DNA from: a virus
Lineage: Duplodnaviria > Heunggongvirae > Uroviricota > Caudoviricetes
Virus record (IMG/VR): IMGVR_UViG_3300050120_000279
Length of the DNA: 64,000 nucleotides
Strand: one strand, 5' to 3'
The notes under the pieces are model-generated. The model had not been told where the DNA came from. It ran no database searches and was given only the letters and a program-made list of their open reading frames with translations. How positions within the stretch are numbered: position 1 is the stretch's first letter; the number at the start of each line of letters is the position of its first letter. A program made the position numbers and the translations under genes. Of the stretch, positions 5,664 through 57,793 are shown piece by piece.

Positions 5664-5689
5664 GAGAAACAGACTATTTGTTCTGTACA

Positions 5690-8281: not shown

Positions 8282-8487
8282 TCCAGCTTTGGCTGCGACG
8301 GATCGTTTCTCTACCCTTCCTGCTCATTACCCTGGCGGTATGGATCATCGGTGACTTGCTCCGGTTCTGCAGCTACTTGCTTATCGGAACTATCGAGTGG
8401 ATCGAAGACGGCGATTGGCCTGGATTCAGCTGGCGCAAAGCTACCCAGATGTCACGGATAGCTTTTCTCTGGTGGCCTAAATACTAA
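8278..8487 (+). CDS. small membrane protein (two predicted TM helices)
   Basis: 69 aa hydrophobic ORF; ATGA overlap with the ligase stop; contains the AGCTTTGGCTG motif at codons 3-6. Confidence 0.4.
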   Translation: MIQLWLRRIVSLPFLLITLAVWIIGDLLRFCSYLLIGTIEWIEDGDWPGFSWRKATQMSRIAFLWWPKY

Positions 8488-8495
8488 GGAGAACT

Positions 8496-8897
8496 ATGTC
8501 ACAAAGTGCTGGCGCTGCTGGCGTCTACGGCATCCTGCTGAATGATCTCGACTCCGCGGAAGTAGAGTTGATCGTCAAGAAGCTGGATGCCGCCCAGCTC
8601 GATTACACAATGGAAAACGAGTGGGATGAACTTGAGAATGGTCCTGAAGATGTCGAGGCAATCAAGCTGCTTCGAGCAGAACTGGATGCCTACTTCATCG
8701 GTAAGGGTGTTGTGATTCCGGAGAAGGCCAAGATTCATTGGACTGCCTTTGATGACGAGCGCCCTGCGTCTTGTGCCACCGATGGTGAGCAGTGGGTTCT
8801 TGGCTTTGGTCTTTTCACACTACCCAGTGAGTACCCGCAGCTGGATAAGACATTCACTGATTTATCTGCCTGGTACACCTGGGCTTGGATGGGATAG
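8496..8897 (+). CDS. hypothetical protein
   Basis: 133 aa ORF with GGAGAA RBS; ends with TAG. Confidence 0.4.
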   Translation: MSQSAGAAGVYGILLNDLDSAEVELIVKKLDAAQLDYTMENEWDELENGPEDVEAIKLLRAELDAYFIGKGVVIPEKAKIHWTAFDDERPASCATDGEQWVLGFGLFTLPSEYPQLDKTFTDLSAWYTWAWMG

Positions 8898-8903
8898 GGC
8901 ACC

Positions 8904-9551
8904 ATGGGAATCATCGAACGGATCCTCTTGAAGCTACTTCGTCATGAGGACATCACAGATAAGGCGGGGGTTCTTTACCTCCGCCGATTCTTCCTCATCA
9001 ACAGAGACAAGAAAGTCACCTGCCATGACGGTACAGTGCAGGAAAAGCGTTCCTGGCATGTCTACCTCCACAAGTTCTATCGCGGCGACACAGACAGGCA
9101 TCTCCATGACCATCCCTGGCCCTTCAAGAGCCTGATGCTGGCCGGAGGATACTGGGAGCACCGCGCGAACCCTGATCACGCCCGTTGGACTGCTCTGCAG
9201 GCTGAGGGTGGCATCGGTGACATGTGCCGGCTGATCGAGATCGATCTCATGGGTGGTACGGCTGGCCTTTATGACCCGCTGCTGTCCGAAGTCAACGAGA
9301 TCTACTGGCGTGCAGGTCAGCGCAAGAAGCCTGAACCTCCGCTGACGATCCGCAAGTGGTATCGACCTGGGTCATTCATCGGCCGCGGCGCCCGCTGGAC
9401 GCATCGCGTCGAGCTTCCTCAGTGCAAGTTTGCCTGGACCCTGGTCTTCACTGGAGTCAAGGAACGTGACTGGGGCTTCCACACGGAAAACGGCTGGTGC
9501 TTCTGGAAGAACTACTCCGAAGGCGTCTGCGCTGTAGGTACTGAGCAATAG
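8904..9551 (+). CDS. hypothetical protein (contains HLHDHPW His-rich motif)
   Basis: 215 aa ORF. Confidence 0.4.
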   Translation: MGIIERILLKLLRHEDITDKAGVLYLRRFFLINRDKKVTCHDGTVQEKRSWHVYLHKFYRGDTDRHLHDHPWPFKSLMLAGGYWEHRANPDHARWTALQAEGGIGDMCRLIEIDLMGGTAGLYDPLLSEVNEIYWRAGQRKKPEPPLTIRKWYRPGSFIGRGARWTHRVELPQCKFAWTLVFTGVKERDWGFHTENGWCFWKNYSEGVCAVGTEQ

Positions 9552-9563
9552 AAAGGCACGACG

Positions 9564-10808
9564 ATGTTCAATGATCCGGAATCAGACGCCCACATGGCGA
9601 TCATTACCCTGGAGAACGCAGGCTTCAAAGCTCATGCCATTGGAGGCTGTGTCCGGGATTTGATCCTGGGGCGGAAACCCAAGGATTATGACCTCGTCAC
9701 GAATGCTACGCCGGAAGAGATCATCAAACTGTTCCCTAAGACGGTCAATGTCGGCGCTGCTTTCGGTGTCATTGTAGCCGTTCTGGAGCATTCTCAGGTT
9801 GAGATCGCCACCTACCGTGCAGACGGAGTCTACTCGGATGGCCGTCGTCCGGACACCGTGATCTATGCCAAGACCCTCGAAGAAGATGTCAGACGCAGGG
9901 ACTTCACCATGAATGGCATTGCGGCCAGCGCCCTTGGCAATGGCGTCCACATGGACTCATGGACTAAGGACTATGTCCATGGGTACAAGGACATCGAAGC
10001 GAAGATCATTCGAACGATTGGCGATCCGGTTGAACGGTTCACCGAGGATCCTCTCCGCATGCTGCGTGCCATCAGGTTCTCGGCCCAGCTGGGGTTCACC
10101 ATCGAGAAGAAGACTTTTGCCGCTATCCAGAAGTGTGCCAAGCTCATCCAGAAGGTTAGTGCTGAACGGGTTCGGACAGAACTGATCAGCCTTCTCACCT
10201 CAGATGAACCAGGTATAGGTATCGCCAATCTTCTGCGGTCGGGGTTGCTGAACTATCGTATGCAGTGGCTCCTGGACCTCAAGTTCCCGCGTCTAATCAC
10301 ACTGCTGGAGCTTGTCAAGCACTCCGAACAGGATAGATATCCCTCAGGTTTCATGCTCGGAGTGTTTCTGGAGTCATTGAAGCCGGCAATGCTCGGTGTG
10401 GCCATCAAGGATCTGAAACTGTCCTATGGCGAAGAGGCTTGCATCAAGAAGATGTGGGACTGGCCCATGTTGCAGGATCTTCGATACGCTGCGGCACCGT
10501 GGCGTCCTCGTGTGAAACGTGCCATGCGCGAGCCGTACTTTGCTCAGGCGATGCGACTCTTTGAGTTGGATCAACTGAGTGGTATCGGACTCAATCCAGA
10601 ACCATTCCAAGAGGTCAATGACCTGGTGACGATTTGCAAACAGGAAGGTATTTATCCTGCAGCTTTCGTGGACGGTGATGACCTGATGGAGTATGGATAC
10701 GAGGGCAAAGCCATCGGCGACGCACTCTACCTGCTCGAATCCGCCCAGCTGGATGGCGCCATCGACAGTAAAGACCAAGCACTACGGTACATCGGAGCAA
10801 TCAAATGA
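9564..10808 (+). CDS. cca: tRNA nucleotidyltransferase (CCA-adding enzyme / poly(A) polymerase head-domain family)
   Basis: GGCVRDLILGRKPKDYDLVTNATPEE matches the class II nucleotidyltransferase head motif; RDF..NG region conserved. Confidence 0.8.
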   Translation: MFNDPESDAHMAIITLENAGFKAHAIGGCVRDLILGRKPKDYDLVTNATPEEIIKLFPKTVNVGAAFGVIVAVLEHSQVEIATYRADGVYSDGRRPDTVIYAKTLEEDVRRRDFTMNGIAASALGNGVHMDSWTKDYVHGYKDIEAKIIRTIGDPVERFTEDPLRMLRAIRFSAQLGFTIEKKTFAAIQKCAKLIQKVSAERVRTELISLLTSDEPGIGIANLLRSGLLNYRMQWLLDLKFPRLITLLELVKHSEQDRYPSGFMLGVFLESLKPAMLGVAIKDLKLSYGEEACIKKMWDWPMLQDLRYAAAPWRPRVKRAMREPYFAQAMRLFELDQLSGIGLNPEPFQEVNDLVTICKQEGIYPAAFVDGDDLMEYGYEGKAIGDALYLLESAQLDGAIDSKDQALRYIGAIK

Positions 10809-11308
10809 GCGCACCACGAACCATTGAGTACTTCGAAGGCAGGTTCTTCTTCCTGTCGAACTTCTTCCCCATCCTGCTTGAATACGATGGCGCGGTCTAC
10901 CCGACCAATGAGCATGCGTTTCAGGCAGCGAAGACAATCGATCCGTTGGAGCGTATTGTGTTCCAGGATCCAAAGTCCTCGCCTTCGGATGTGAAGAAGC
11001 TCGGCCGAGCCATCACCCTCCGGCATGATTGGGAACAGGTCAAGAACTCCATCATGAAGGAGCAGCTGTTGGAGAAGTTCTCCGACAGGCACCCCATCTA
11101 TCTGAAGGGATTGCTCAACACCGAGGACCGCACTCTTGTTGAGGGTAACCTCTGGCATGACAACATTTGGGGCAACTGCCATTGCATGGACAATCTCACT
11201 GTCCGCGTTCCATTCGGATCAAAGGCATTCTGTGTTAGTCCTGGACAGAACCGACTGGGTCTGGCTCTGATGGAAGTCAGAGCAGAACGTCTCGCATGCC
11301 AGTCCTAG
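10805..11308 (+). CDS. NADAR (YbiA-like) domain protein
   Basis: EYFEGRFFFLSNFFP...YPTNEHAFQAAK matches the NADAR/DUF1768 signature; ATGA overlap with cca. Confidence 0.75.
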   Translation: MSAPRTIEYFEGRFFFLSNFFPILLEYDGAVYPTNEHAFQAAKTIDPLERIVFQDPKSSPSDVKKLGRAITLRHDWEQVKNSIMKEQLLEKFSDRHPIYLKGLLNTEDRTLVEGNLWHDNIWGNCHCMDNLTVRVPFGSKAFCVSPGQNRLGLALMEVRAERLACQS

Positions 11309-11796
11309 CAGTCATCGGGTCGCGATCATTCAACTACCAGGACCGAGTCTGGGAATATCTGGACAAGGTCCTGGAGAAGACCGAGAACCTAAGTCTGGTC
11401 TCGGGCGCCTGCCCTCAAGGCGCTGATGCCCTCGCAGAATCCTGGGCAAAGAGGAGGGGTGTTCCTATCCTGTTGTATCCGGCCGACTGGTCGAAGGGTA
11501 AGGGCGCCGGCTTTGCACGTAACCAGAAGATCGTCAAGGCAGCTGATGTCGTGGTGTGTTTCTGGGATGGCACGAGCAAGGGAACTGTGGATTCAATCGA
11601 ACGTGCATGGAGATTGGGGATTAAGGTCATGGTTTCGACCCCTCAAAACCCAAAGATGGTGCTCGTCAAAGACTTCATGGAACTTGCGCAGCGTGCTTGT
11701 TTGCACCCCGGAATGAGGGACTGGTCTACAGGAACTTCGACCTTCTGTCCGGACTGTAATCACGTGTTCAACGTACAAGACAACCCAACTCAGTAG
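11296..11796 (+). CDS. DUF2493 (YspA-like SLOG family) Rossmann-fold protein
   Basis: VIGSRSF...SGACPQGADALAESWAKRRGV...YPADWSKGKGAGFARNQKIV matches the DUF2493 consensus. Confidence 0.65.
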   Translation: MPVLAVIGSRSFNYQDRVWEYLDKVLEKTENLSLVSGACPQGADALAESWAKRRGVPILLYPADWSKGKGAGFARNQKIVKAADVVVCFWDGTSKGTVDSIERAWRLGIKVMVSTPQNPKMVLVKDFMELAQRACLHPGMRDWSTGTSTFCPDCNHVFNVQDNPTQ

Positions 11797-11806
11797 GGAG
11801 CAGCAT

Positions 11807-12250
11807 TTGTTGAACGACAACACTTTAGAAGAAGTTACACCGAGTTCTTTCGCTATGGCGGAAGAGCGGTTCTATGTAATTGTTCCCGAGACTGTCCAAT
11901 CTGACATGACAAGTCACGATATGGAGTCCGGAAGACTCATGGCTCAGTCGTTTCATATAGGCAGAGTCGTTGAGTATCGAAGAGCCATGGCTGGAGCCCA
12001 GTCACAGGACATCACAACGATCGTTCTCGCGGTACGCAATACCCTGGAACTGAACAAAGTGATGACTGAGCTGGTAGGACAGCAGTTAGTTGATGACGGT
12101 AAAGGGAAGCCTCACTTCGCCGTCTCGCTATATCGTGACCACAACCCCCAGGTCTACCAGACGGACAGCCGTGTACTGACTGCTCTCTGTGTAGGTCCGG
12201 TTATCCGTTCCGCCGTCGAACACATCCTGGGACACCTGGAGACGTACTAG
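11807..12250 (+). CDS. peptidyl-tRNA hydrolase, PTH2 family
   Basis: MAQSFH..., ITTIVLAV, VSLYRDHNPQVYQTDSRVLTALCVGPV and C-terminal LGHLETY align to the PTH2 core (VAAQCSHA...[23 protein letters not shown]...TGHLKLY). Confidence 0.7.
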   Translation: MLNDNTLEEVTPSSFAMAEERFYVIVPETVQSDMTSHDMESGRLMAQSFHIGRVVEYRRAMAGAQSQDITTIVLAVRNTLELNKVMTELVGQQLVDDGKGKPHFAVSLYRDHNPQVYQTDSRVLTALCVGPVIRSAVEHILGHLETY

Positions 12251-12287
12251 CTTTGGCTGGACTTCCCCTGCACTGGATCCTAAAGAG

Positions 12288-12713
12288 ATGAAACGACACA
12301 CCTGTTTTGCCCTGCTGTTCTTGTCTCTCTCAGGGTTTGCCGCCATCCCCTCTCAAGGGGTTGTTGGTATGGCCACTTGGTATGGAAAACAACACCATGG
12401 GAGAAAGACCAGCAGTGGTCGCCGATTCAACGAACATGAGCTCACTGCCGCGTCTCCTACGTTGCCCTTCGGAACCCGCGTTCACGTCACCTTCCTGAAG
12501 ACTGGAAGGTCCGTTGACGTCGAGATTACCGATCGAGGTCCCTTCGGTAAGCACCGAATCCTCGATCTTTCTGAGGAAGCAGCGGATGAGATCGGACTCA
12601 AGCCCTACGGCGTAGGACGGATCAAATTAGAGGTCATCAATGAGCGCCAGCTTTCAGCAAATCACTCTTACCCTCGTCGTGAAGGAAGAGGACGTCGAAG
12701 CAGTGAAACGTGA
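12288..12713 (+). CDS. secreted RlpA-like double-psi beta-barrel protein with signal peptide
   Basis: N-terminal signal peptide; ATWYG..GRKTSSGRRFNEHELTAASPTLPFGTRVHVT..GRSVDVEITDRGP matches the RlpA/DPBB motif. Confidence 0.65.
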   Translation: MKRHTCFALLFLSLSGFAAIPSQGVVGMATWYGKQHHGRKTSSGRRFNEHELTAASPTLPFGTRVHVTFLKTGRSVDVEITDRGPFGKHRILDLSEEAADEIGLKPYGVGRIKLEVINERQLSANHSYPRREGRGRRSSET

Positions 12714-12834
12714 ACTGAACCAGTCCCTCGATTGTATCGGGGAAGAGTATCAGGTCCACAACGACAAGATCGAGGAAGAGGACTGCGATAGCCCTGAGTC
12801 CGAAGATCTGTACGAGTTCGAAGACGCGGCGTAA
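12640..12834 (+). CDS. small acidic protein
   Basis: 64 aa, Glu/Asp-rich C-terminal half; starts inside the 3' end of the RlpA-like gene. Confidence 0.3.
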   Translation: MSASFQQITLTLVVKEEDVEAVKRELNQSLDCIGEEYQVHNDKIEEEDCDSPESEDLYEFEDAA

Positions 12835-12886
12835 CAACCGCAAGCCGTAACAATCAACCGGACAAGTTCCGCTAGGAGAAAGAATC

Positions 12887-13375
12887 ATGGCATCAGTCGC
12901 AAGCATCACCCTGTTGGGCAACCTCGGAAAAGACCCAGTCCTCACCAAGGGTTCCGATGTATCGAAGTCATACTGCGATCTGTCGATTGCAGTTGAGATC
13001 TATGACGGCAAAGACGCCGCCGGCAAAGGCCAGTACAAGACCAACTGGTGGAACCCGCGTGTCTTCGGCCAGCAGGCGGAGTACATTGCCGGTGCAGCCA
13101 AGAAGGGCAACGCTGTTCTCGTGCTCGGCGATCTCGTCATCAATGAGAAGGACGGCAAGCAGTACAACAACGTCCGCGCCACCACTGTCCGCCTCGCTAC
13201 TCGCAACGAGAAGGGTTCTGGGGATCAAGCACAGCCCCAGGGCGAACAGACTCAGCAGACCAGCTCGGCGCCTGTGGCGCAGCAGGCAAGCGCTCCTGCC
13301 ACGGCCGCAGCTCTCCCGCCGGCTACTGTCCATGCCACCACGATGGAAGCAGTCGACGAAGACCTGCCGTTCTAA
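12887..13375 (+). CDS. ssb: single-stranded DNA-binding protein (SSB)
   Basis: OB-fold N-terminus (ITLLGNLGKDP), Gln/Pro-rich linker and acidic C-terminal tail ...DEDLPF. Confidence 0.8.
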   Translation: MASVASITLLGNLGKDPVLTKGSDVSKSYCDLSIAVEIYDGKDAAGKGQYKTNWWNPRVFGQQAEYIAGAAKKGNAVLVLGDLVINEKDGKQYNNVRATTVRLATRNEKGSGDQAQPQGEQTQQTSSAPVAQQASAPATAAALPPATVHATTMEAVDEDLPF

Positions 13376-13387
13376 CCACCAACCGTT

Positions 13388-13407
13388 GGGGAGGGGAAAC
13401 CCTCCCC
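13388..13407 (+). terminator. stable hairpin GGGGAGGG-GAAA-CCCTCCCC after ssb (terminator or RNA stability element; no clear U-tract)
   Basis: Perfect 8-bp GC stem with GNRA tetraloop 13 nt after the ssb stop. Confidence 0.35.
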
Positions 13408-13420
13408 GATATGAGGTCTC

Positions 13421-13747
13421 ATGTCCCTGAATAAAGCAATCAATTCGGTTGTTGCCCTCATCGAGGGACGAACTGATATCGCCAAAGAGATCTTCCGGGA
13501 TCCAACATCAGATGTTTCGAACATTCCTGATGTCATGGCACGCCTCGATGCCGCCGTTGAGAAAGCAGCCGCTAAGGCTATCCGTAATGGACTCATCCGC
13601 GCACTCGCCATAAGACCTGACGTAAAGATCTCCCCTAATGTCCTATCCCCCGAGAGGGCTTTCTACGACGGGGTCAACGCTATGGAGAAGCTCTTCGGCG
13701 ATATTGCCTTCACCTTGGAGCGTCATGCATCTGACGATCAATACTGA
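13421..13747 (+). CDS. hypothetical protein
   Basis: 108 aa ORF. Confidence 0.35.
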   Translation: MSLNKAINSVVALIEGRTDIAKEIFRDPTSDVSNIPDVMARLDAAVEKAAAKAIRNGLIRALAIRPDVKISPNVLSPERAFYDGVNAMEKLFGDIAFTLERHASDDQY

Positions 13748-14282
13748 CGGTGGCGGTCAAGCGAGTTCCGACGTCGGCGGTGACGCTGCGGCAGCATATG
13801 TCGTCCAGACTATCGAAGGGACTTATCTGGGAAGCTCCTCGTGTCAACTGGTGGGAACTAACAATGATGCCGAGTACCTTGGGGTCCTCATGGCCGTTAG
13901 GGACCTACGCGATCAACTCATTGCTCCCCACGAGGATATCGAAAGCGTCACTTTCATCGCTGATTCGCAGCTCATCGTCTACCACCTCACCGGCGACTGG
14001 AAGTGTAAGAGTTCTAAACTCCGAGTAACTCGGGACGAGATCCGAGCAATCGTAAAAGCTCTTCCTTTCCCAGTGTCCTTCACTTGGATGCGACGTGAAC
14101 ACAACAAGAACGCTGACACCCTTTGTGCCGATGCCATGGTGAACGGGCCGAAGCTCGACTTTACTGCGCCGATCCCACGTGATCCGCGTGTCAAGAAAGA
14201 TGGTACCCGTGCCAGAATCAGCAGAATCAAAGACTTCGCTTTCGCTATTGAACCTTTTGAGACTAGCGAGTACCGGCTATGA
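13725..14282 (+). CDS. rnh: ribonuclease H (RNase HI-like)
   Basis: INTDGG...GTNNDAEYLGVLMAV...DSQLIVYHLTGDW...WMRREHNKNADTLCADA matches the RNase H catalytic DEDD layout. Confidence 0.7.
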   Translation: MHLTINTDGGGQASSDVGGDAAAAYVVQTIEGTYLGSSSCQLVGTNNDAEYLGVLMAVRDLRDQLIAPHEDIESVTFIADSQLIVYHLTGDWKCKSSKLRVTRDEIRAIVKALPFPVSFTWMRREHNKNADTLCADAMVNGPKLDFTAPIPRDPRVKKDGTRARISRIKDFAFAIEPFETSEYRL

Positions 14283-14298
14283 AGATGGCTGGCTCGAC

Positions 14299-14547
14299 AT
14301 GTACTTCAAGAAGAAGACTGGTGAGCCCAAACGGCATGTAACTCGCGGCGGGGATACATTGGCACGCTTCATCGTCATAGAGCTGGCCGAAACCTTTGAC
14401 GAAGATATGAGTCAGGATGAACAGATCGAAGAAGCACAGCGTGCCCTTCAATCGGCGATCGTTGATCTCGAAGATGTGATCACTGCCCTTGGTTCCCCTG
14501 CAATGTTAGCTCAAGTCTTAGCGTGTAAGAAGGATAAGAAGTCATGA
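14299..14547 (+). CDS. hypothetical protein
   Basis: Internal ATG of ORF 14179..14547 downstream of the RNase H stop. Confidence 0.3.
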   Translation: MYFKKKTGEPKRHVTRGGDTLARFIVIELAETFDEDMSQDEQIEEAQRALQSAIVDLEDVITALGSPAMLAQVLACKKDKKS

Positions 14548-14741
14548 AGACATTCTCCGTAACCTTTACTTTTCGTGAGCTTCCCAGTCCCCATATGTAC
14601 CAGTCGACGACAGTCGACGCCAGCAGTATTGGCACTGCGGTGCGCCGCGCGGAGGAGATTATCCGTGCTAGGCCACATGTCAAAGGACGACGTATCACGC
14701 AGTGCGAGATTGATGTGAGCGAGTCTGGTGCTAGTACGTAG
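14544..14741 (+). CDS. hypothetical protein
   Basis: 65 aa, ATGA overlap with upstream gene; TAG stop. Confidence 0.35.
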   Translation: MKTFSVTFTFRELPSPHMYQSTTVDASSIGTAVRRAEEIIRARPHVKGRRITQCEIDVSESGAST

Positions 14742-14980
14742 TGCCTAACATCGCCGATAACTATCCGGCTGGTGCCTTTGACGGAGATAGCTGCTTCAGC
14801 ATTGGCCATATGGGTGGTTGCGGAGAAGACTGCAAAGTCCTCCACCGCGGCGAATGCGATATCGAAGAAGAGATGTTCGTTCAAATAGGCATCTGGCCCA
14901 ACAAGTTCCATGGTCCGGACTGGCCCCCAATCTGTGAAGAACCCCTGTATATGAAAAGGCTGGCTGATGACACCTATTGA
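14741..14980 (+). CDS. hypothetical Cys-rich protein
   Basis: 79 aa ORF starting with GTG directly at the upstream stop. Confidence 0.3.
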   Translation: MPNIADNYPAGAFDGDSCFSIGHMGGCGEDCKVLHRGECDIEEEMFVQIGIWPNKFHGPDWPPICEEPLYMKRLADDTY

Positions 14981-15524
14981 AGAGTTGAAGATGTACTGCA
15001 GCCAGTTTCGTATCGGGCAGGTTGTACGTACATCGCAAGGCTACGGCGTTGTCGAAGCAATCGATGCCGGGTTTCCTGGAGCATTTATCCGTGTACAGAT
15101 CGATGGTGCCGGCTCACCGGAGTTCAGCGCTCACAACGTGTATCAGCTTTCAGATCTGGACCGTACAGCTCGCCAAGCTATAGCTGAAGCTTGGGGTATC
15201 AACGCTTTCGGCAAACTGGAAGTTCATAATGTAGCCCAGCGAACGATTCGACTCAATGAAGAGTCTGTTGAAGCCTGTCAGGTAGCCAACGTGGACCCTG
15301 ATCTTCTTCACGAACAGATCGACGAAGTCTATAGCCGGCCTGTTGGCGAGCTCAACCAGGAGATTGGCGGGATTGGTCTCTGTGTTTTGCTGCTCGCTGC
15401 TTCTGCTGGACTTGATGCTGATCAAGAAGAGAACCGGGAAGTGAAACGGGTTCTCAACAAGCCGGTCAAGTACTTTACAGCGCGTAATGCTGACAAGAAC
15501 GCGCGTGGTTTCAGCGCAGTCTAG
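14967..15524 (+). CDS. hypothetical protein
   Basis: 185 aa ORF. Confidence 0.4.
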   Translation: MTPIEELKMYCSQFRIGQVVRTSQGYGVVEAIDAGFPGAFIRVQIDGAGSPEFSAHNVYQLSDLDRTARQAIAEAWGINAFGKLEVHNVAQRTIRLNEESVEACQVANVDPDLLHEQIDEVYSRPVGELNQEIGGIGLCVLLLAASAGLDADQEENREVKRVLNKPVKYFTARNADKNARGFSAV

Positions 15525-15532
15525 GAGACACC

Positions 15533-15784
15533 ATGCAGCAGTATTCATATCAAGTTCCCTCCCATCCAAAGGGAGGCATCGCATTCATGTTTGACGTCAT
15601 TGCTGAAGACCCATTCGATTCATTGGTCAAGGCTCGGGCACTGCTGGAAGAGCAGTCCGATGATGAGGGCAATCTGCATATCGATCTCACCTTTGGCTTG
15701 ACAGCAGGGAAGCTGAAGATCTTTGCAGGCGCCATCGACAACGACTCGTTGATCGACGTCAAGGAAATACCGGACCTGATGTAA
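15533..15784 (+). CDS. hypothetical protein
   Basis: 83 aa ORF with GGAGAC RBS. Confidence 0.35.
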   Translation: MQQYSYQVPSHPKGGIAFMFDVIAEDPFDSLVKARALLEEQSDDEGNLHIDLTFGLTAGKLKIFAGAIDNDSLIDVKEIPDLM

Positions 15785-15845
15785 GCAATTGCCCTGTAGT
15801 AGATCGGCACCTTTCGAATCACACTCAGACATAAGTTAGGAAACA

Positions 15846-18086: not shown

Positions 18087-18095
18087 AGGAAACCC

Positions 18096-18467: not shown

Positions 18468-18471
18468 AGAC

Positions 18472-20546: not shown

Positions 20547-20721
20547 GCTCGTTCTCTTTCTGGCAGCCAGATTCCTCTCTAAGAGCTTCTGGCTGCTGGT
20601 ACTGAGCACGTTCTTCGGTGTGTTGCTCTTCGCTATGAGGTCCTACTACCGCAACGAAGTGTTTCAGGACGCGACCAAAGCGTCGTGGCGCATGGGGAGA
20701 GGCAATGCAAATCGGTTTTAG
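20539..20721 (+). CDS. small membrane protein
   Basis: Hydrophobic 60 aa ORF (internal ATG of 20461..20721). Confidence 0.3.
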   Translation: MDELVLFLAARFLSKSFWLLVLSTFFGVLLFAMRSYYRNEVFQDATKASWRMGRGNANRF

Positions 20722-21430
20722 GATACTGGAAGACTTTGAACAAGAGGACATCAACGAGGTGCTCAAGGAGCTCTCGGTGTTCTGTTCCTCCTGCAGGCTT
20801 TCCCAGAGCCATCCCTTCAACCGGGGGATGGTTACTCGGGGGAATCCGCTCGCCAAGATCGCGATCGTCGGCGCCCAACCCAACGACTCGGAAACTGAAA
20901 AGGGTGTGCCCCTCGTGGGCATGGCCGGCAAAGAGTTCGAGAAATGGATGAACCATATCGGTGTCGACACACAGCGCGACACCTTCGTTACCAATGTGAT
21001 CCAGTGCCAGCCTCCGAAGAAGAAGATCAACAATCGGATGCGCACCAGGGATCCTGAGAAAGATGAGATCAATGCCTGCTTCGGCCCACGTGCCCTTAGA
21101 GTGCTTCGCGCTATGCCTAACCTTGAGGTCGTTATTGTTCTGGGTTGGATTGCGGCGAAGGCCTTTCTGGGGACCTCGAACGACGAGAATGTCCCGAAAA
21201 CCAAGACGCATGAGGGGCAGTGGTTTGAGTCCTCGCTTCTCCCCGGCAAGGCGATCTTCTGCATTAGCAATCCGATAGACATTATCCACCTTGAGAGCCC
21301 TGAAAAGCGCATGGTCATCCAGAAGTTCCTCGACTACTTCAAGCGTGAAGTGTTCGAGCAGAAGAAGGTCCTTGGGCTAGCCAAGGTTGCCCAGGAGCGC
21401 CGTGAGGAGCTTGGGCTTGGAGTATTCTAA
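20705..21430 (+). CDS. uracil-DNA glycosylase superfamily protein (family 4-like)
   Basis: IVGAQPNDSETEKGVPLVGMAGKEF and NVIQCQPPKKKINNRMRTRDPEKDEINAC correspond to UDG family 4 motifs (GE.PG...PFVG.AG and N.V.CRPP.NR.P...E...C). Confidence 0.6.
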   Translation: MQIGFRILEDFEQEDINEVLKELSVFCSSCRLSQSHPFNRGMVTRGNPLAKIAIVGAQPNDSETEKGVPLVGMAGKEFEKWMNHIGVDTQRDTFVTNVIQCQPPKKKINNRMRTRDPEKDEINACFGPRALRVLRAMPNLEVVIVLGWIAAKAFLGTSNDENVPKTKTHEGQWFESSLLPGKAIFCISNPIDIIHLESPEKRMVIQKFLDYFKREVFEQKKVLGLAKVAQERREELGLGVF

Positions 21431-21747
21431 TGCCCCTACCCATGAGGGAACAGGAACTTGTTGACACTGGCGCCCCGAAGGTCTTCGCCTTCTGGAAGTA
21501 TGATCTGTTCCCCTTCATGCTCGGAGGTGAAGGCTACCTCGTTGAATGGGGCAAGGTTTACGTTCCGTCGTACCAGAACACGTTCAAACCGATCATCACT
21601 CTCAATAAGGCAGATGGTCAAAAGCTTCACGACGAACTGAAGATCCTTGAGCATGAACATTATGCAGCGAAGCAGCAACTCGCAGAAAGATTCCGCGGAC
21701 AACGCGATGGCATCTTGAAGCGTCACGGACAGGAGTATCCAAAGTGA
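21430..21747 (+). CDS. hypothetical protein
   Basis: 105 aa ORF. Confidence 0.35.
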   Translation: MPLPMREQELVDTGAPKVFAFWKYDLFPFMLGGEGYLVEWGKVYVPSYQNTFKPIITLNKADGQKLHDELKILEHEHYAAKQQLAERFRGQRDGILKRHGQEYPK

Positions 21748-22010
21748 AGAAGTATGTCATCGAGTTTCTGTATTGCGATAACAACCAGTTGTATCAGGAA
21801 GATGTCGAACTGACTCTTGATCAGCGAGCACGCCTGCTGATCTTCCTCTGTGGACTTGAGACTAATGGTGTCATCGAGAGTACAGAAGAGGCCAGTGAGT
21901 TCATTTATGAATACACCGAACCCAACTTCATCAAGTTTGATCGACTAAAGGCTCTATGGAGCCAAGGATCGCTGATAGATTCTGCCGATATGTATGGAGT
22001 AATTCTATGA
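21744..22010 (+). CDS. hypothetical protein
   Basis: 88 aa ORF. Confidence 0.35.
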   Translation: MKKYVIEFLYCDNNQLYQEDVELTLDQRARLLIFLCGLETNGVIESTEEASEFIYEYTEPNFIKFDRLKALWSQGSLIDSADMYGVIL

Positions 22011-23065
22011 CGACCAGAAGAAACCTGAGTGTTGAACTGCGGCCTCAGCGCCTATCCGAGTTGGTTGGCCAGGAGGGTGTCGTTGCCAGTCTTCGACGCA
22101 ATTTCGGTGCCGGCAGCGTGCCCATTGGTATCCTGCTGACCGGCTCCTTTGGTCAGGGTAAAACGACGATCGCTCGAATTCTGGGTATGGCTTTCAACTG
22201 CACTCACCAGGTCCAGTTTGGTGAGACCTGTGTCGATTGTCTCGACAATGCAGACATGTTCAACATCTTTGAGCTGAACTGTGCGGACTTGACGACCATC
22301 GACCAGATGAAAGAGTTCCTGCCCAAACTCTTACCGTACCCGAACTTTGGTAAGTATCGGATCATCATCCTCGATGAAGCACAGCAGATGTCGGACAAGG
22401 CTCAGCAGATCTTGCTGACCCCGCTCGAGGAGCTGGACTCCCATAACATCTTTATCTTCTGCACATCGAACCCGGCAAAGATCAATCAGGCTGTGAAGGA
22501 CAGGTGTAAGCCGTTCGCTATTCCTGATCTGAAACCGGCCGGCGTGACTGCTCTGGTCAACAGGACCGTGGAGCTGGCTGTCTCCCGCTATGGAATGCCT
22601 TCCATCCCGATGGATCCTCTCATCGAGATGCTGCATACCGCTCAGGTGTTCAGCTCGCGCAATGTAGTCATGGCTGTCGAGATGTTCCTTGAAGGGTCGA
22701 CGGCGGCCCAGGCGATCGTCATCAAGGACGCGGGCGAGGTAGACTACTTCTCCCTCAATGCCGCTGTAGGGCAGGGTAAGTGGGAACCAGCTCGTAAGAT
22801 TCTCCAGATGGCCAAGCCGGCGGATGGTGCCCAGGTGAAGATGCGTCTCTCAGCATTCTTCCGGTACAAGTTGCTGGAAACCCCTGCTGGGAGCCGGGCC
22901 GATCTTCTGTCACTCTTTATAAGGGAGTTGGGAGATGCGGCCGCTGTCGAGTCTGGTCTTGAATTATCCCTTGTCGTCAGTGCGGTCTACCGGATCTGCC
23001 AGACGATCGAGAACGTGAAGAGCAAGACTTCCACTAACAATCCAGTGTTGATCAAGGCGGCGTAA
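22007..23065 (+). CDS. clamp loader AAA+ ATPase subunit (DnaX/RFC-like)
   Basis: Walker A GILLTGSFGQGKTT, Walker B IIILDEAQQMS, sensor region; located just downstream of the clamp gene. Confidence 0.65.
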   Translation: MTTRRNLSVELRPQRLSELVGQEGVVASLRRNFGAGSVPIGILLTGSFGQGKTTIARILGMAFNCTHQVQFGETCVDCLDNADMFNIFELNCADLTTIDQMKEFLPKLLPYPNFGKYRIIILDEAQQMSDKAQQILLTPLEELDSHNIFIFCTSNPAKINQAVKDRCKPFAIPDLKPAGVTALVNRTVELAVSRYGMPSIPMDPLIEMLHTAQVFSSRNVVMAVEMFLEGSTAAQAIVIKDAGEVDYFSLNAAVGQGKWEPARKILQMAKPADGAQVKMRLSAFFRYKLLETPAGSRADLLSLFIRELGDAAAVESGLELSLVVSAVYRICQTIENVKSKTSTNNPVLIKAA

Positions 23066-23991
23066 TGAAAGTACTTACAGACGAGCAGCTGACTCTCATG
23101 CAACAGCACGCAGACCAGCCGATTCCGCCGTTTGCGCCCCATCCTGATCGGCACTACCGGGCGGTGGACACCTACCTGGAGAGCTGGCCGAATGATCTTC
23201 GGTCACTCTCGGTAGCTCAGATCGATATCCCACTGACCCTGGAGGAGTGCACGATCCTGGGTTCGCAGATCGCGGACTTCGGACAGTCGTTTGCACCCGA
23301 ACCCCTACCAGCACATGATCTGATTGCGAAGGTGCAAACAGCTTCCGAGAAGATGCCTGGTCCGTTCTTCGTCCGCCTGGGTTCACGAAGCCCCAAGGAT
23401 GCCCTTTACTGGTTCAAGGACGAGATGAAGGTCGACAATGGAGAGGAAGCTCTCCAACTGCTGACCGCTAGCTCCGAACGTGTCTGGGAAGATCTCCGGA
23501 TCGGCCTGCACTTCGGGTATGCCTCGCACATCTTCCTTCGCCAGTGGACGGAGATGCCTGAATGGTCCGAGTTCCGGTGCTTCATGAAGGGCCGGAAGCT
23601 CATTGCTGTCTCGCAGTACTACTATCGCCAGGCGCACCGTGAACTGATCGAGGACTACGACGGCATCAAGTGGGCCATCGAACAGTTCTTCACCCGTCAG
23701 TTCAAGCATCTTTCACATCTGGATGACGTGGTCTTTGATGTCTTCGTCAAGCAGAAGACCAATGCCGGCACGTTCAATAGCGGTGTCTGTGGCGTGCCTC
23801 CTTGGCGGGCCTGGGAGATCAAGCTCCTCGAGATCAACCCATACTGGAACCTGTGCGATCCTTGCCTCTTCAACTGGAGTGAGCTGGATGCACTAGCCGA
23901 AGGCGGAACTGAATACCAGTTCCGTTTCATCGAGCAGACTGAGCAGTTGATAGGCCACAAGTATTCGGTCGTCAAAGCTGACCAGCTCTAA
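23065..23991 (+). CDS. Cdc123/D123-like ATP-grasp family protein (candidate)
   Basis: FFVRLGSRSPKDA and SEFRCFMKGRKLIAVSQYYY match the two hallmark motifs of the Cdc123 ATP-grasp clade. Confidence 0.5.
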   Translation: MKVLTDEQLTLMQQHADQPIPPFAPHPDRHYRAVDTYLESWPNDLRSLSVAQIDIPLTLEECTILGSQIADFGQSFAPEPLPAHDLIAKVQTASEKMPGPFFVRLGSRSPKDALYWFKDEMKVDNGEEALQLLTASSERVWEDLRIGLHFGYASHIFLRQWTEMPEWSEFRCFMKGRKLIAVSQYYYRQAHRELIEDYDGIKWAIEQFFTRQFKHLSHLDDVVFDVFVKQKTNAGTFNSGVCGVPPWRAWEIKLLEINPYWNLCDPCLFNWSELDALAEGGTEYQFRFIEQTEQLIGHKYSVVKADQL

Positions 23992-24054
23992 GCCTATCCC
24001 TGTATTTGGCCCGGCAGGTCCGACCAATACAGTCGTGTTCTGAAAGGAATACCC

Positions 24055-26505
24055 GTGCAGAAGAAGTCAAGTAGCAAAGCTGTCGACGAGCCAGTGTCGT
24101 CACAGATGCAGATCAAGAAGCGCAATGGTTCTTTGGAGCCTGTCGACCTGAACAAGATTGTCCGTGCAATCGGACGTTGCTGTAATGGTTTACCCAATGT
24201 CGATCCGATTCGTGTGGCCTCAAAGACCATCAGCGGTATCTTCAATGGCGCAACCACCCAGCAGCTGGATGAACTGTCCATTCAGACGGCCGCGGCGCTT
24301 ATCTCAGAGGAGCCAGAGTACTCAAAGCTGGCAGCGAACCTCATGGCGGAGTACATCCGTAAGGAAGTAGCCAACCAGGAGATCCATTCGTTCTCCCATG
24401 CCATGACCGTGGGCCATGAGCAGGGGCTGATCAATGATCGTCTTCTGGAGTTCGTCAAGATCAATGCACGCAAGCTGAACAACGCGATCAAGGAAGAGCA
24501 CAGCGAGCTGTTCGAGTACTTCGGTATCCGGACTGTTTACGACCGCTATCTTCTTCGTCATCCTGTGAGCCGTAAGGTGATCGAGACACCTCAGTACTTT
24601 ATGATGCGTGTCGCTGCTGCCTTGGCTATGACCGTGGCCGATGCTCTTGAGACCTACCGTCTCATCAGCAACATGAACTACATCCCGTCGACCCCGACGT
24701 TGTTCAATGCGGGCACGACTCACGAGCAGATGTCCAGCTGCTACCTAATGGCTCCTCCCGAGGACTCCATCGAGGGCATCTACGAGATCTATGGTGAGAT
24801 CGCATTCAACTCCAAGTTCGCTGGTGGTATCGGCAGTCCCTGGGGTACGATTCGGTCGGCTGACTCGCTCATCAAAGGCACCAACGGCAAGTCCAATGGC
24901 ATTCTCCCCTGGCTCAAGACACTGGACTCGTCCGTGGCTGCAGTCAATCAGGGCGGACGCCGTAAGGGAGCCGCCGCGGTCTACCTACCAACTTGGCATG
25001 CTGACATCGAGGATTTCCTTGAGCTGCGCAACAATACCCTCGACGCGAACAAAGCGACACGCAATCTGAACCTGGCCCACTGGGTCCCGGATCTGTTCAT
25101 GGACGCGGTTGATCAGGACCGCGACTGGTATTTGTTCGATCCCAAGGATGTACCTGACTTCAACGAGAGCTTCGGTATCGATTTCGACAACGCCTATTCA
25201 GACGCTGTCACTGCCGGCAAGTTCAAGAAGAAGGTCAAGGCTCGTGACCTGTATGCCAAGATGATGCTTACCCTCGCAGAAACCGGCAACGGTTGGATGT
25301 GCTGGTCTGATCGGTCAAACGTCAAGTCGAACCAGACGGGTATGGGAGATGTCATTCATTCCTCGAACCTCTGCACAGAGATCCTCGAGGTGACCAAGCG
25401 CAAGGATTCAGACACCGAGACGGCTGTCTGCAACCTGGCTTCCGTGGTTCTTCCGTCGTACTGGGACCGTATCAAGGGCTCGTTCGATTACAAGACCATG
25501 GTGAAGGATATCAAACAGATCGTCCGTCAGCTGGATCGCGTGATCGACCTGAACTTCTACCCGATCGTATCGGCTGAGGTCTCGAACAAGAAGTGGCGTC
25601 CCATTGGTTTGGGTGTCATGGGCCTACAGGATGTGTTCTTCCTCGCCGGCCTGCCGTTCGATAGTCCTGAGGCCGTATCGCTCTCGACGAAGATCCAGGA
25701 AGAGATCTACTACGCGGCAATGTCTGCGTCATGTGATCTCGCGGAGAAAGAGGGTTCGTTTCCCAACTTCTCCAAGACCCGAACAGCTCTGGGCAAGTTG
25801 CAGTTCGATCTCTGGGACGTAGTTCCGGCAGACAAAGCACGCTGGGATGCTCTCAAGGATCGTATTGCCTCAACAGGCCTGCGAAACTCGTTGGTCATCG
25901 CCATCGCGCCGACGGCTACCATCGGATCTATCATCGGAGTCTACGAGTGCATCGAGCCGCAGGTTTCGAACCTGTTCAAGCGCGAGACACTGTCGGGCGA
26001 GTTCATCCAACTCAACCGGTACCTGGTAGCCGACCTCAAGAAGATCAATCTCTGGAACGAGGACATCCGTTCCAAGATCAAAATCGCTGATGGGTCGATT
26101 GCAGGCATCGAGGAGATCCCGGTGAACCTCCGACTGCTTTACCGCACGGTCTGGGAGCTGTCACAGAAAGACCTGATCGACATGGCGGCCGCCCGCGGCC
26201 CTTATATCGACCAGAGTCAGTCTCTGAATCTGTTCATCGAGAATCCTACGGTGGGCAAGCTGTCCTCGATGTACATGTATGCCTGGAAGAAGGGCTTGAA
26301 GACGACGTACTACCTGCGCTCGCGCGGTGCTTCGTCGATCGCCAAGACCACGGTAACCTCTGCTCCTACGACCAGTGCGTTTCCTCCAGCCATGCGTGAA
26401 GTGAAGACAGACCCGGCGCTGCAGCATCTTCTGGATGCAGCAGCGATGGGCGCGGCAATAGCGTGTTCTCTTGAGAACCCTGAATCGTGTGAGGCTTGTC
26501 AGTAA
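24055..26505 (+). CDS. nrdA: ribonucleotide reductase class Ia large subunit NrdA with N-terminal ATP-cone
   Basis: ATP-cone (QIKKRNGSLEPVDLNKIVRAI), catalytic NLCTEI, C-terminal redox Cys pair; GTG start with AAGGAA RBS (alternative ATG at 24106). Confidence 0.9.
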   Translation: MQKKSSSKAVDEPVSSQMQIKKRNGSLEPVDLNKIVRAIGRCCNGLPNVDPIRVASKTISGIFNGATTQQLDELSIQTAAALISEEPEYSKLAANLMAEYIRKEVANQEIHSFSHAMTVGHEQGLINDRLLEFVKINARKLNNAIKEEHSELFEYFGIRTVYDRYLLRHPVSRKVIETPQYFMMRVAAALAMTVADALETYRLISNMNYIPSTPTLFNAGTTHEQMSSCYLMAPPEDSIEGIYEIYGEIAFNSKFAGGIGSPWGTIRSADSLIKGTNGKSNGILPWLKTLDSSVAAVNQGGRRKGAAAVYLPTWHADIEDFLELRNNTLDANKATRNLNLAHWVPDLFMDAVDQDRDWYLFDPKDVPDFNESFGIDFDNAYSDAVTAGKFKKKVKARDLYAKMMLTLAETGNGWMCWSDRSNVKSNQTGMGDVIHSSNLCTEILEVTKRKDSDTETAVCNLASVVLPSYWDRIKGSFDYKTMVKDIKQIVRQLDRVIDLNFYPIVSAEVSNKKWRPIGLGVMGLQDVFFLAGLPFDSPEAVSLSTKIQEEIYYAAMSASCDLAEKEGSFPNFSKTRTALGKLQFDLWDVVPADKARWDALKDRIASTGLRNSLVIAIAPTATIGSIIGVYECIEPQVSNLFKRETLSGEFIQLNRYLVADLKKINLWNEDIRSKIKIADGSIAGIEEIPVNLRLLYRTVWELSQKDLIDMAAARGPYIDQSQSLNLFIENPTVGKLSSMYMYAWKKGLKTTYYLRSRGASSIAKTTVTSAPTTSAFPPAMREVKTDPALQHLLDAAAMGAAIACSLENPESCEACQ

Positions 26506-26757
26506 ATGGTCACTTATCACGTAGTTGTGAGCGATGACATGGACATTGTCTTTGTAGGTAATGTTGATGCCTCCAATGACAGCGGCCACGGCCGCCACCG
26601 GCTAAAGGCGGACATCGAGAAGATGTTCCTTGACTTCGGACCTACCTATCGCGTGGAGATCACTCTCGCGGCAGTAGCCTCCCGGCCAGAAGTACTCCTC
26701 CACGAACTCAAGACTGTTCTCACAGGGCTTGAAGGCAACGCAACCAAGGAGCTGTAA
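26506..26757 (+). CDS. hypothetical protein
   Basis: 83 aa ORF, TAAATG overlap with nrdA. Confidence 0.35.
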   Translation: MVTYHVVVSDDMDIVFVGNVDASNDSGHGRHRLKADIEKMFLDFGPTYRVEITLAAVASRPEVLLHELKTVLTGLEGNATKEL

Positions 26758-26891
26758 ATGTGCGCTGAAGATTACGAAGATGAAGACTTCGACGACGAAG
26801 AGGACGATGACGAAGATGATGACGACCTCGATGACGACTTCGATGATGAGGACGAGGACGATTGCGACGAAGACGATGAGGATGACTGTTG
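26758..26891 (+). CDS. 44-aa polyacidic micro-protein (about 90 percent Asp/Glu)
   Basis: ATG directly after the upstream TAA; MCAEDYEDEDFDDEEDDDEDDDDLDDDFDDEDEDDCDEDDEDDC; stop overlaps the next ATG (ATGA-type coupling). Confidence 0.35.
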
Positions 26892-27203
26892 ATCGTCATT
26901 CACTCTGACATGGAGTCTCCTGGCTCAACGGAATCTGCGCAGGCTGCGCGGGTGTTCAGGGCCGGGAGAGCTTTCTCCCATTTGTGTGCCGATACCGAAG
27001 ACGAACTTCGTGCCTATGCCAAAGCGATCGGTCTCAACATGAGATGGATCCAGAACCCTGGAAATCCACAGCGCGTTCACTTCGATGTGACCGGCGCCTG
27101 GCTTACCAGAATCCGCAACGACGACCGTGTAGTCAACATGACCATGCGTGAGTGGGTCGATTGGTATTCCGCACGGAATAAGCGATACGAGGTACTTGGA
27201 TGA
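26889..27203 (+). CDS. hypothetical protein (possibly DUF4031-like, VHFDVT motif)
   Basis: 104 aa ORF. Confidence 0.35.
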   Translation: MIVIHSDMESPGSTESAQAARVFRAGRAFSHLCADTEDELRAYAKAIGLNMRWIQNPGNPQRVHFDVTGAWLTRIRNDDRVVNMTMREWVDWYSARNKRYEVLG

Positions 27204-27349
27204 GGACTAATTCGTATCCTGGTTGGCGCACGATGACCTCTGTCCAACGACGTAACGCCAAGATGGACCGTATCTGGGAAGCCGCGAAGGATGCTCAGAC
27301 AAGGTTCAATGCATCGAGTCGTGAACCCGCTACAACCAAGTAACAAAGG

Positions 27350-28375
27350 ATGCTACACATGAGCAATACCAAAGATGATCTTCTGTCCCCCGGCTTCGAT
27401 CTCAATCTTCGACCTATGAAATACCCAGACTTCTATGAGATGGTGGGCCTGGCAGAGAAGAACACCTGGACTGTTGAAGAGGTGGACTTTTCCACCGATC
27501 TCGTCGATCTCCGAACTAAGGTGACGACCGCTGAGAAGCATATGATCCAGCGCCTGGTCGCGTTCTTTGCCACCGGGGATTCCATCGTCTCGAACAACCT
27601 GGTGTTGAATCTTTACACCCACCTGAACTCTCCGGAAGCTCGCCTGTATCTTTCACGCCAGCTCTGGGAGGAAGCCCTGCACGTCAAGTTCTATCTGACA
27701 TTGCTGGATAACTACATCCCGGAACCTTCGGAACGCAACGCAGCCTTCGCCGCGGTGGATAACATCCCATCGATCCAGAAGAAGGCTGAGTTCGCCACCA
27801 AGTGGATCGATTCGATCAACGATCTGCACCGTATCGAGTCCACTGAGGACAAGAAGCGCTTCCTTCTGTGTCTCATCTGCTTTGCTGCATGTATCGAAGG
27901 CATGTTCTTCTTCGCTGCGTTCGCCTATGTGTACTTCCTCCGCTCGAAGGGTCTGCTTCATGGCCTTGCGACTGGGACCAACTGGGTTTTCAGGGACGAA
28001 TCGGCTCACATGGCGTTTGCCTTTGCTGCGATCGACGTGATCCGGGTTCAGTCTCCGGAACTGTTCGACGAGGATCTCAACAACCGGATTATCGAGCTCA
28101 TCGAAGATGCGATTGATACCGAGGTTCAGTTCGCCGAAGATCTTCTGTCGGGTGGAGTCGTCGGGCTCAGCGCCAAGGACATGCGTCAGTACTTGGAGTA
28201 TGTTGCTGACCAGCGCTTCGCGCGCTTGGGCATCAACTACAGCTACGGGTCGACCAATCCCTTTCCGTTCATGGAACTCCAAGACGTGCAGGAGCTGACG
28301 AACTTCTTCGAGCGACGTGTCTCTGCATACCAGGCCAATGTCACGGGAACCGTCGGTTTCGACGAGACCTTTTAG
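27350..28375 (+). CDS. nrdB: ribonucleotide reductase class Ia small subunit NrdB
   Basis: Di-iron/tyrosyl radical motifs (EEALHVKFY, FAACIEGMFFFAAFAYVYFL, NWVFRDESAHMAF); alternative start at 27359 with better RBS spacing. Confidence 0.9.
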   Translation: MLHMSNTKDDLLSPGFDLNLRPMKYPDFYEMVGLAEKNTWTVEEVDFSTDLVDLRTKVTTAEKHMIQRLVAFFATGDSIVSNNLVLNLYTHLNSPEARLYLSRQLWEEALHVKFYLTLLDNYIPEPSERNAAFAAVDNIPSIQKKAEFATKWIDSINDLHRIESTEDKKRFLLCLICFAACIEGMFFFAAFAYVYFLRSKGLLHGLATGTNWVFRDESAHMAFAFAAIDVIRVQSPELFDEDLNNRIIELIEDAIDTEVQFAEDLLSGGVVGLSAKDMRQYLEYVADQRFARLGINYSYGSTNPFPFMELQDVQELTNFFERRVSAYQANVTGTVGFDETF

Positions 28376-28415
28376 GTAGCTTTGGCTGCGGCCACAGGGA
28401 GCATAGATCTAAGTC

Positions 28416-28667
28416 ATGAACGCAAAGACCATACGAGTAGAAGTCAGCGCAATAGATGTGCAGGGTAGTGTCGTGATCGATGATCTCAGTATTACGGCCG
28501 ACACTATCCTGCGGGATGGTCTGCGATTGGTTGGTGGGAGCACCTACGGATTCCTCGAACTCCGTCTCCTCATACCAAAAGATCGTCTTGATGATGTCAC
28601 CCGCGCTGTACGCCAAGGGAAGGTCGAACTTTTGATCGATAGCATCCCGGCCCGGGTAGCTGCGTGA
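28416..28667 (+). CDS. hypothetical protein
   Basis: 83 aa ORF. Confidence 0.35.
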   Translation: MNAKTIRVEVSAIDVQGSVVIDDLSITADTILRDGLRLVGGSTYGFLELRLLIPKDRLDDVTRAVRQGKVELLIDSIPARVAA

Positions 28668-57778: not shown

Positions 57779-57793
57779 CAACAAGGAGTAAGC

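Follow-up and report, generated by a model that had tools for sequence, protein, structure and literature searches.

A short box repeated next to stop codons in a large uncultivated soil phage: a plausible -35 region for leaderless genes

The middle promoters of phage T4 carry a MotA box, with the consensus (a/t)(a/t)TGCTT(t/c)A, in place of the -35 element, and they are read by sigma-70 that has been modified by MotA and AsiA. Other phages encode sigma factors with a promoter consensus of their own, including SPO1 gp28 and gp33/34 and phiEco32 gp36. The PeSL cassettes of T4-type phages combine strong sigma-70 promoters with a terminator stem-loop and are present in many copies in hyperplastic regions (PMC2839356, PMC4122927). 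Leaderless bacterial genes are marked by a TANNNT-like signal that starts approximately 12 bp ahead of the start codon, and it was in lambda that a leaderless mRNA first became known (PMC3160421). The element analyzed here is an 11-nucleotide box, AGCTTTGGCTG, found three times near stop codons in a 64,000-nucleotide stretch of viral DNA (IMG/VR record IMGVR_UViG_3300050120_000279, the window), which derives from a large uncultivated phage with approximately 54% G+C and nearly all of its genes on the + strand up to 56 kb. The box is plausible as a promoter element, and would be of an ordinary kind that changes no general principle; examples of phage-specific promoter boxes and of leaderless transcripts are already well known.

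The box was compared upstream of the gene for an RlpA-like (DPBB) protein, referred to as site 2, in an alignment (A2) of the window with L002, L003, L157/L158, L159/L161/L162 and L163. These are seven sequences from approximately six lineages of uncultivated soil phages, and positions are numbered with the A of the ATG as +1. The sequence TAGCTTTGGC upstream of the DPBB gene was identical in 7/7 sequences; identity to the relatives was 61-79% for the DPBB protein, 48-82% for the ligase and 42-60% for the PTH2-like protein. From the start of the box to the DPBB ATG there are 38 nt in L002 and 39 nt in each of the other six sequences. TTGGCN lies at -35 to -30, where TTGGC is invariant and the sixth base is T, A or C. 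The spacer that follows (-29 to -13) showed no conservation, and the only invariant columns besides the box and the ATG were A-11, C-8, T-7, A-4 and G-1. The hexamers at -12 to -7 (GATCCT, GATCCT, GAACCT, AATCCT, GACCCT and GACTCT) follow the pattern [GA]A-N-[CT]-C-T, in which position 2 is A and position 6 is T in all seven sequences, and are separated from the -35-like hexamer by 17 nt, or by 16 nt in L002. Of a -10 element, the two positions that matter most correspond to A-11 and T-7, and TTG at -35 to -33 together with a 17-nt spacer is canonical sigma-70 geometry. Among these relatives the start of the box always falls at -2 to +3 nt from the stop codon that precedes it. In L002 the box-DPBB unit is preceded by a small membrane-protein gene, not by the PTH2-like gene, and the similarity between L002 and the window starts exactly at the T preceding the box.

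Relative to L125, the window carries an insertion of three genes (28378-29304) that opens with the site 3 box; in L125 nrdB is directly followed by a MazG-like gene, the homologue of 29308-29787; the module is also missing from the P0123 contig. L124, with an nrdB that is 95% identical, retains both the box and the 83-aa gene, whereas L125 (nrdB 84% identical) and the P0123 contig have a different gene directly after nrdB and no box, and the site 3 box was seen only in the close lineage of the window. In L124 the box is kept even though six of the seven nucleotides at -27 to -21, starting 1 nt 3′ of the box, are substituted. The substitutions in the 83-aa gene relative to L124 fall 2:2:16 by codon position, which indicates that this open reading frame (ORF) is a real gene; its protein had no Pfam or PHROG match. 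In these comparisons, the box travels with the downstream gene and not with the upstream gene.

The reading that we favor, with a probability of roughly 55%, is that the box is the -35 region of a small phage promoter class used by a sigma-70-family holoenzyme, with transcription starting at the next ATG to give a leaderless mRNA. In this arrangement AGCTTTGGC would occupy -39 to -31, with TTGGCN within it as the -35 hexamer, followed by 16-17 nt of free spacer sequence and a weak -10 hexamer of the form [GA]A-N-[CT]-C-T at -12 to -7. Transcription would start at the ATG or within one or two bases of it, so each of two genes in a long co-directional array, the RlpA-like one (12288) and the one for 83 aa (28416), would have an internal promoter of its own and an mRNA with no leader or almost none. 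The poor -10 hexamer and the nine contiguous invariant bases of the box suggest a dedicated factor, not the host housekeeping sigma alone; the reader could be the sigma-like protein of the phage (54918-56090) or an activator touching the -35 region. It is consistent with this promoter reading that every copy of the box is co-directional with the genes, that all box-led genes begin with ATG, that site 1 has the same bipartite pattern as site 2, and that one of the proteins of the window has a sigma region-4 (-35-binding) domain. The purine-rich sequence at -6 to -1 (AAAGAG, GGAGAG) is too near the ATG to serve as a Shine-Dalgarno sequence, but many other genes of the phage have no clear one either. 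The comparisons show the anatomy of the element, its conservation, its tie to the gene downstream and the lack of RNA structure; that it is an active promoter, where transcription begins, that translation is leaderless and which factor takes part are predictions from these sequences.

Compared with T4 middle promoters, the proposed elements have in common a phage-specific box of 9-10 bp at -35/-30, a sigma-70-type -10 and a location ahead of a subset of genes in co-directional arrays. However, AGCTTTGGC differs by eye from the MotA-box consensus, is centered near -35 and not -30, and is joined to a -10 that is weak and not TAnnnT; no homologue of MotA or AsiA was found either, with no search aimed at them. 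The systems with phage sigma factors share a protein with sigma region 4, the domain that reads -35 elements, and a -35-region box that is not host-like. In contrast to these systems, the window protein has no region 2 detectable by sequence and only weak fold matches, and there are three boxes, none of them before late genes in the part of the genome covered. Lambda PRM-cI and the leaderless genes of Actinobacteria, Deinococcus-Thermus and Acidobacteria resemble site 2 in having a -10-type hexamer that starts 12 nt before the ATG (PMC3160421, PMC4007540), and the box-led genes may share with them the lack of a Shine-Dalgarno sequence at a workable distance; lambda PRM also has a weak core promoter, and the box promoter would probably need help at the -35 region in a similar way. 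The differences from leaderless-gene promoters are that the first base of the -10 is G or A and not T and that the strongly conserved part is an extended 9-10-nt box in the -35 region and not the -10. PeSLs share the repeated promoter motifs at gene boundaries beside small accessory genes of variable presence (PMC2839356, PMC4122927), but with no stem-loop, a weak core promoter and three copies the present locus falls outside the PeSL class.

Several observations weigh against the promoter reading. The match to TTGACA-N17-TATAAT is 6/12 (4/6 and 2/6), which is under the 9/12 criterion and argues against the housekeeping sigma acting alone, and a scan for generic sigma-70 consensus promoters flagged none of the sites. 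None of the possible -10 hexamers at site 3 (TAGATC, AGATCT and GATCTA) combines A at position 2 with T at position 6. At site 1 the box is intragenic and is not conserved in L002, where the homologous codons are TGTTGCAGTTG, and the start predicted near 8324 has no start codon. Conservation of C-8, A-4 and G-1 is not explained by a -10 element. The sequence covered for the box was the 64-kb window and the 10 kb downstream of its end (from L126), approximately 74 kb, and only the three copies in the window and none in the next 10 kb were found, which indicates that the box is not the general promoter class of the phage. Furthermore, the closest RepA proteins are betaproteobacterial, and leaderless genes are uncommon in that group (PMC3160421). 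A sigma-54 promoter was also considered and rejected as the GG and GC elements are wrongly spaced when checked by eye.

Table 1. Positions of the boxes, the associated promoter-like hexamers and the genes discussed, in coordinates of the window.
Feature	Position	Strand	Remarks
Box site 1	8285..8295	+	exact match; 3 nt past ligase stop, intragenic
Small membrane-protein gene, 69 aa, GTG start overlapping ligase stop	8278..8487	+	holds site 1
TACCCT, -10-like	8312..8317	+	17 nt after TTGGCT of site 1
Box site 2, TAGCTTTGGCTG	12248..12259	+	exact match; TAG is the stop of the PTH2-like ORF 11807-12250
-35-like hexamer TTGGCT	12253..12258	+	-35..-30 relative to A of ATG 12288
-10-like hexamer GATCCT	12276..12281	+	-12..-7; 17 nt past -35-like hexamer
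RlpA-like (DPBB_1) secreted protein gene	12288..12713	+	Pfam DPBB_1, E = 1.3e-22
Box site 3	28378..28388	+	exact match; 2 nt past nrdB stop, 38 nt before ATG 28416
Ambiguous -10-like region, site 3	28404..28411	+	TAGATC (spacer 16), AGATCT (17), GATCTA (18)
83-aa gene, function not assigned	28416..28667	+	first of three-gene module (to 29304)
Sigma-like protein, 390 aa, C-terminal sigma region-4 domain	54918..56090	+	candidate box reader, by inference only

The three exact copies of AGCTTTGGCTG listed in the original prediction (8285-8295, 12249-12259 and 28378-28388) were recovered in a search of the window, all on the + strand. That prediction placed them 4, 1 and 3 nt after the stop codons of the ligase, PTH2-like and nrdB genes, which is nearly right: 3 nt separate the ligase stop (TGA, 8279-8281) from the site 1 box and 2 nt separate the nrdB stop (TAG, 28373-28375) from the site 3 box, but at site 2 the two overlap, as the box begins with the AG of the TAG stop (12248-12250) that ends the 147-aa PTH2-like ORF (11807-12250). 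The CTAA[AG] element noted downstream is present as described, with CTAAA (12280, site 2) and CTAAG (28409, site 3) exactly 20 nt 3′ of the box and shortly ahead of the ATG (12288 and 28416, respectively). The view that the three positions are equivalent gene boundaries did not hold, since site 2 is deeply conserved, site 3 is seen in the close lineage only, and site 1 is not intergenic and is missing from the nearest relative to carry the gene around it. Of the mechanisms proposed, the promoter is the best fit, given the conserved box, the fixed 38-39 nt to the ATG and the -10-like hexamer 16-17 nt further on. An attenuator or an RNase-processed structure received no support from folding (z -0.6 to +1.7), terminator hairpins, Rfam or compensatory changes.

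The site 1 box lies in codons 3-6 of the conserved 69-aa membrane-protein gene. The protein is homologous to the product of L002 4007-4207 (BLASTP E = 7e-6), and both genes overlap the ligase stop; in L003 a different gene is found at this position, with no box. The bipartite pattern TTGGC-N18-20-ANYCT matches the + strand four times, at sites 1 and 2 and at two intragenic positions (22065 and 29516), against approximately 1.3 matches per strand expected by chance. If site 1 is active, it would give a leader of approximately 170 nt for gene 8496. It is possible that site 1 is a recent third promoter, and the box at this site may also be a coincidence.

The sequence adjacent to the box differs between close relatives in a patchy manner. 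Between L163 and L159, 9 mismatches were found at -30 to -15 relative to the DPBB ATG, compared with 17 in the 1500 nt downstream, and in the L124 comparison the six differences of 28389-28395 are followed by none in the next 21 nt. These replacements occur between relatives that are otherwise 95-99% identical, and leave the box and positions -12 to -1 untouched. To judge from the alignments, the spacer differences look like short-patch replacement and not point mutation. They could result from gene conversion between box-carrying promoters or from operator diversification, and they lend some color to a role in shuffling like that of PeSLs (PMC2839356).

The main rival, which we regard as unlikely, is that the box acts at the RNA level, as an element of the polycistronic mRNA that binds a protein or the ribosome in linear form or pairs with the purine stretch before the AUG, and that thereby controls translation initiation or marks processing. 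A fixed distance to the AUG would be expected for a translational element too, and the box starts -2 to +3 nt from the upstream stop, where terminating ribosomes sit. CUUUGG (-37 to -32) can pair with CCuAAAG (-9 to -3), in which the CTAA[AG] element would be the 3′ partner at sites 2 and 3; 88% of the cells pair across the seven sequences, and the variation at -5, -6 and -9 (R/R/Y) is compatible with G-U wobble. However, slid controls still pair in 64-74% of the cells, and no pair shows a two-sided change because the 5′ strand is invariant. In most lineages the helix would consist mostly of U-G wobbles, two or three of them, with a bulge, and would enclose a loop of 22 unpaired nt, and it is present in no minimum-free-energy fold; the folds of all sites and homologues had z values of -0.6 to +1.7 relative to shuffled sequences. 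Pairing also leaves the invariance of A-11, T-7, AGC (-39 to -37) and C-31 unexplained. No terminator-like hairpin was found with the box, only a weak 6-bp stem within the end of nrdB that is not conserved in L124, and at the gathering score of Rfam 15 no family was found at the boxes, the window matching only two tRNAs and a permuted transfer-messenger RNA (tmRNA). No more probable than the RNA-level element is that the box is an operator for a transcription factor of the phage or the host (a repressor, or an activator of the class II or MotA type) instead of a contact site for sigma, the candidates in the window being the TetR, LuxR-type response-regulator and HARE-HTH proteins at 56-63 kb. 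The nine invariant bases exceed what a -35 hexamer needs, an identical 11-mer is found at three loci of one genome with several DNA-binding proteins encoded nearby, and the box contains a short inverted repeat, AGC-N4-GCT; the hypervariable spacer beside it recalls operator or immunity diversification. On the other hand, only 3+3 bp are symmetrical, and with the inner TTTG invariant too the box is asymmetric, unlike typical TetR and LuxR operators. An operator alone would not account for TTGGCN at -35 to -30 or for A and T at -11 and -7, and this explanation overlaps heavily with the favored one, since an activator at -35 would still be a promoter element.

It is less probable again that the box is mainly a recombination junction for swapping accessory gene modules, as in the PeSL cassettes of T4-type phages. 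The box does lie at the 5′ edge of variable modules (28378-29304 is absent from L125 and 8488-12248 from L002), patches right beside it are replaced between close relatives, and PeSLs are repeated promoter motifs that mediate such shuffling (PMC2839356). Eleven bases, however, are very short for homologous exchange, the terminator stem-loop of PeSLs is absent, and recombination alone would leave the constant spacing to the ATG and the conserved -12 to -1 region unaccounted for. L002 is not the product of recombination between boxes 1 and 2 because it retains the small membrane-protein gene that would be deleted in such an event. The least probable explanation of all is that the repeat is a coincidence with no function, which is very unlikely for sites 2 and 3. 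Shuffled windows contained AGCTTTGGCTG 0.06 times on average, but the + strand of the window has 35 different 11-mers present at least three times, compared with a mean of 5.2 in first-order Markov random sequences. The chance argument of the original prediction therefore needs a correction: three copies alone are not beyond chance, since triple 11-mers are expected somewhere, and it is the position relative to the stops that is unusual. Among the 35, only AGCTTTGGCTG has each of its copies at -3 to +6 nt from a + strand stop codon, positions that make up 1.27% of the window, which gives a probability of approximately 2e-6 per word and 7e-5 after multiplication by 35. What counts for AGCTTTGGCTG is position and conservation, not copy number. 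The coding and unconserved site 1 would fit a coincidence, as would two extra copies of the 10-mer AGCTTTGGCT, at 50198 and 53443, which encode Ala-Leu-Ala in frame (GCT-TTG-GCT) within genes and look coincidental. Coincidence does not account for the conservation of site 2 in approximately six lineages with unconserved neighboring bases, or for the survival of the site 3 box beside six substitutions in 7 nt.

A sigma-like factor had been predicted at 54918-56090; of this, the region-4 domain was borne out, while a complete sigma architecture and a link to the box were not. The window protein alone gave 17.9 bits against Sigma70_r4, which is below the cut-off of 24.1. Its family has at least 381 metagenomic homologues (E <= 0.001) in a library of 1.84 billion proteins, Sigma70_r4 was matched by 16 of 26 family members, and a profile of these 26 matched region 4 of FliA and SigF in PDB with E = 3e-5. 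An AlphaFold model based on the family alignment (pLDDT 82; the single-sequence model had pLDDT 36 and was not usable) has an N-terminal helical domain, a central winged-helix domain and a C-terminal sigma-4-like domain, and the best full-length Foldseek matches were SigD, SigB and S. aureus SigB, with weak E values of 0.008-0.03. Sigma region 2 was not detectable by sequence, and tblastn of the protein against 50,697 cultured phage records gave no match. A sigma region-4 domain is therefore supported and a full sigma factor is plausible; that the protein reads the box is pure inference. The most far-reaching combination, in which this divergent sigma-like protein reads a private class of promoters that has the box as its -35 element and drives small leaderless accessory modules, with a hypervariable spacer that arises from exchange or diversification between such promoters, is doubtful as a whole. 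If true, it would be a new phage sigma/promoter pair in an uncultivated lineage of soil phage-plasmids.

Should the promoter reading prove right, it would offer a means of studying regulation in large uncultivated soil phages, through the box, the start point predicted from it and a candidate for the factor, as well as examples of phage leaderless genes beyond lambda cI. It would also fix the true start codon of the RlpA-like gene. The signal-peptide N-terminus of the DPBB protein that starts at ATG 12288 is conserved in the relatives, and together with the box this points to the upstream ATG as the true start. In the public gene calls, the gene in P0248 (L157, 8177) starts at an internal Met (MASWYG...), and for L002 and L003 the calls have no gene here.

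The phage of the window was also assembled from SRR35930614 (L001, L126 and L127), and its relatives stem from metagenomes of soil. Megablast of 24 kb against cultured phages gave no match, and tblastn of the primase against cultured phages gave distant matches only. In IMG/VR, no relatives came up in scans with the ligase, the 83-aa protein or the DPBB alignment; a scan of IMG/VR with a pattern of the box plus GATC gave single-copy matches in every locus listed, which were taken as chance without a homology check. With the DPBB alignment as query, a scan of metagenomes yielded bacterial RlpA genes only (62% GC), all lacking the box, and a host search in GTDB genomes with a 19-base bipartite pattern gave four chance matches, none homologous to window proteins. 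L160 was left out of the comparison because the first approximately 45 nt (1-45) of the public ENA contig are Illumina adapter sequence (GTGACTGGAGTTCAGACGTGTGCTCTTCCGATCT), an assembly artefact.

The 8-mer CTTTGGCT is present in eight copies on the + strand and one on the - strand. The copy at 33426 was rejected as a box site as it has no gene at the right distance. The near-match ACCTTTGGCTC at 42602, which is 41 nt before an ATG, was also set aside; it is one arm of a 9-bp hairpin (GGGGAGUCA/UGGCUCCCC, 42593-42615) after the stop of gene 40584-42563, and is for this reason probably a different element. The ORF that starts after it (440 aa, 42643-43965) is unannotated and has no Pfam match.

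The window encodes a tRNA with anticodon CUA (4051-4127), an amber suppressor that ARAGORN labels 'tRNA-Pyl' and that scores 64.9 bits with the Rfam tRNA model; tRNA-Leu(GAG) (1717-1804) and tRNA-Arg(UCU) (2688-2764) are found near it. TAG is the stop codon of 23 of the 89 genes in the gene map, and with the standard code the structural genes of L126 read as long ORFs, which gives no sign of wholesale recoding. Read-through coding of the box by means of the suppressor tRNA was rejected, as the box is in one frame at site 2 and in another at site 3, and the extensions lack conservation. The phage also encodes a permuted (two-piece) tmRNA at 5656-6033 (Rfam tmRNA_permuted, 76.1 bits compared with a gathering score of 47), for which ARAGORN gives the tag peptide AATAMPTMGFAAAA.

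A plasmid-like maintenance module is located at 56300-63100, with ParA/CbiA, TetR and LuxR-type response regulator genes near a RepA_C gene; the DNA-binding proteins at 56-63 kb are of the HARE-HTH, LuxR-type response regulator and TetR families. Four 22-nt iterons (GGCTTGCCAGTATGCGTG...) at 59165-59274 adjoin the RepA_C gene (59275-60207, - strand), and RepA is approximately 33-35% identical to betaproteobacterial plasmid RepA. The iterons together with the RepA_C and ParA/CbiA module suggest a phage-plasmid lifestyle. Between sites 1 and 2, the block 8488-12248 is wholly absent from L002 and variable in the other relatives. It encodes 133-aa and 215-aa ORFs, a nucleotidyltransferase of the PolyA_pol/CCA-adding type, and NADAR, YAcAr and PTH2-like proteins, and may be an RNA repair or ADP-ribose module.

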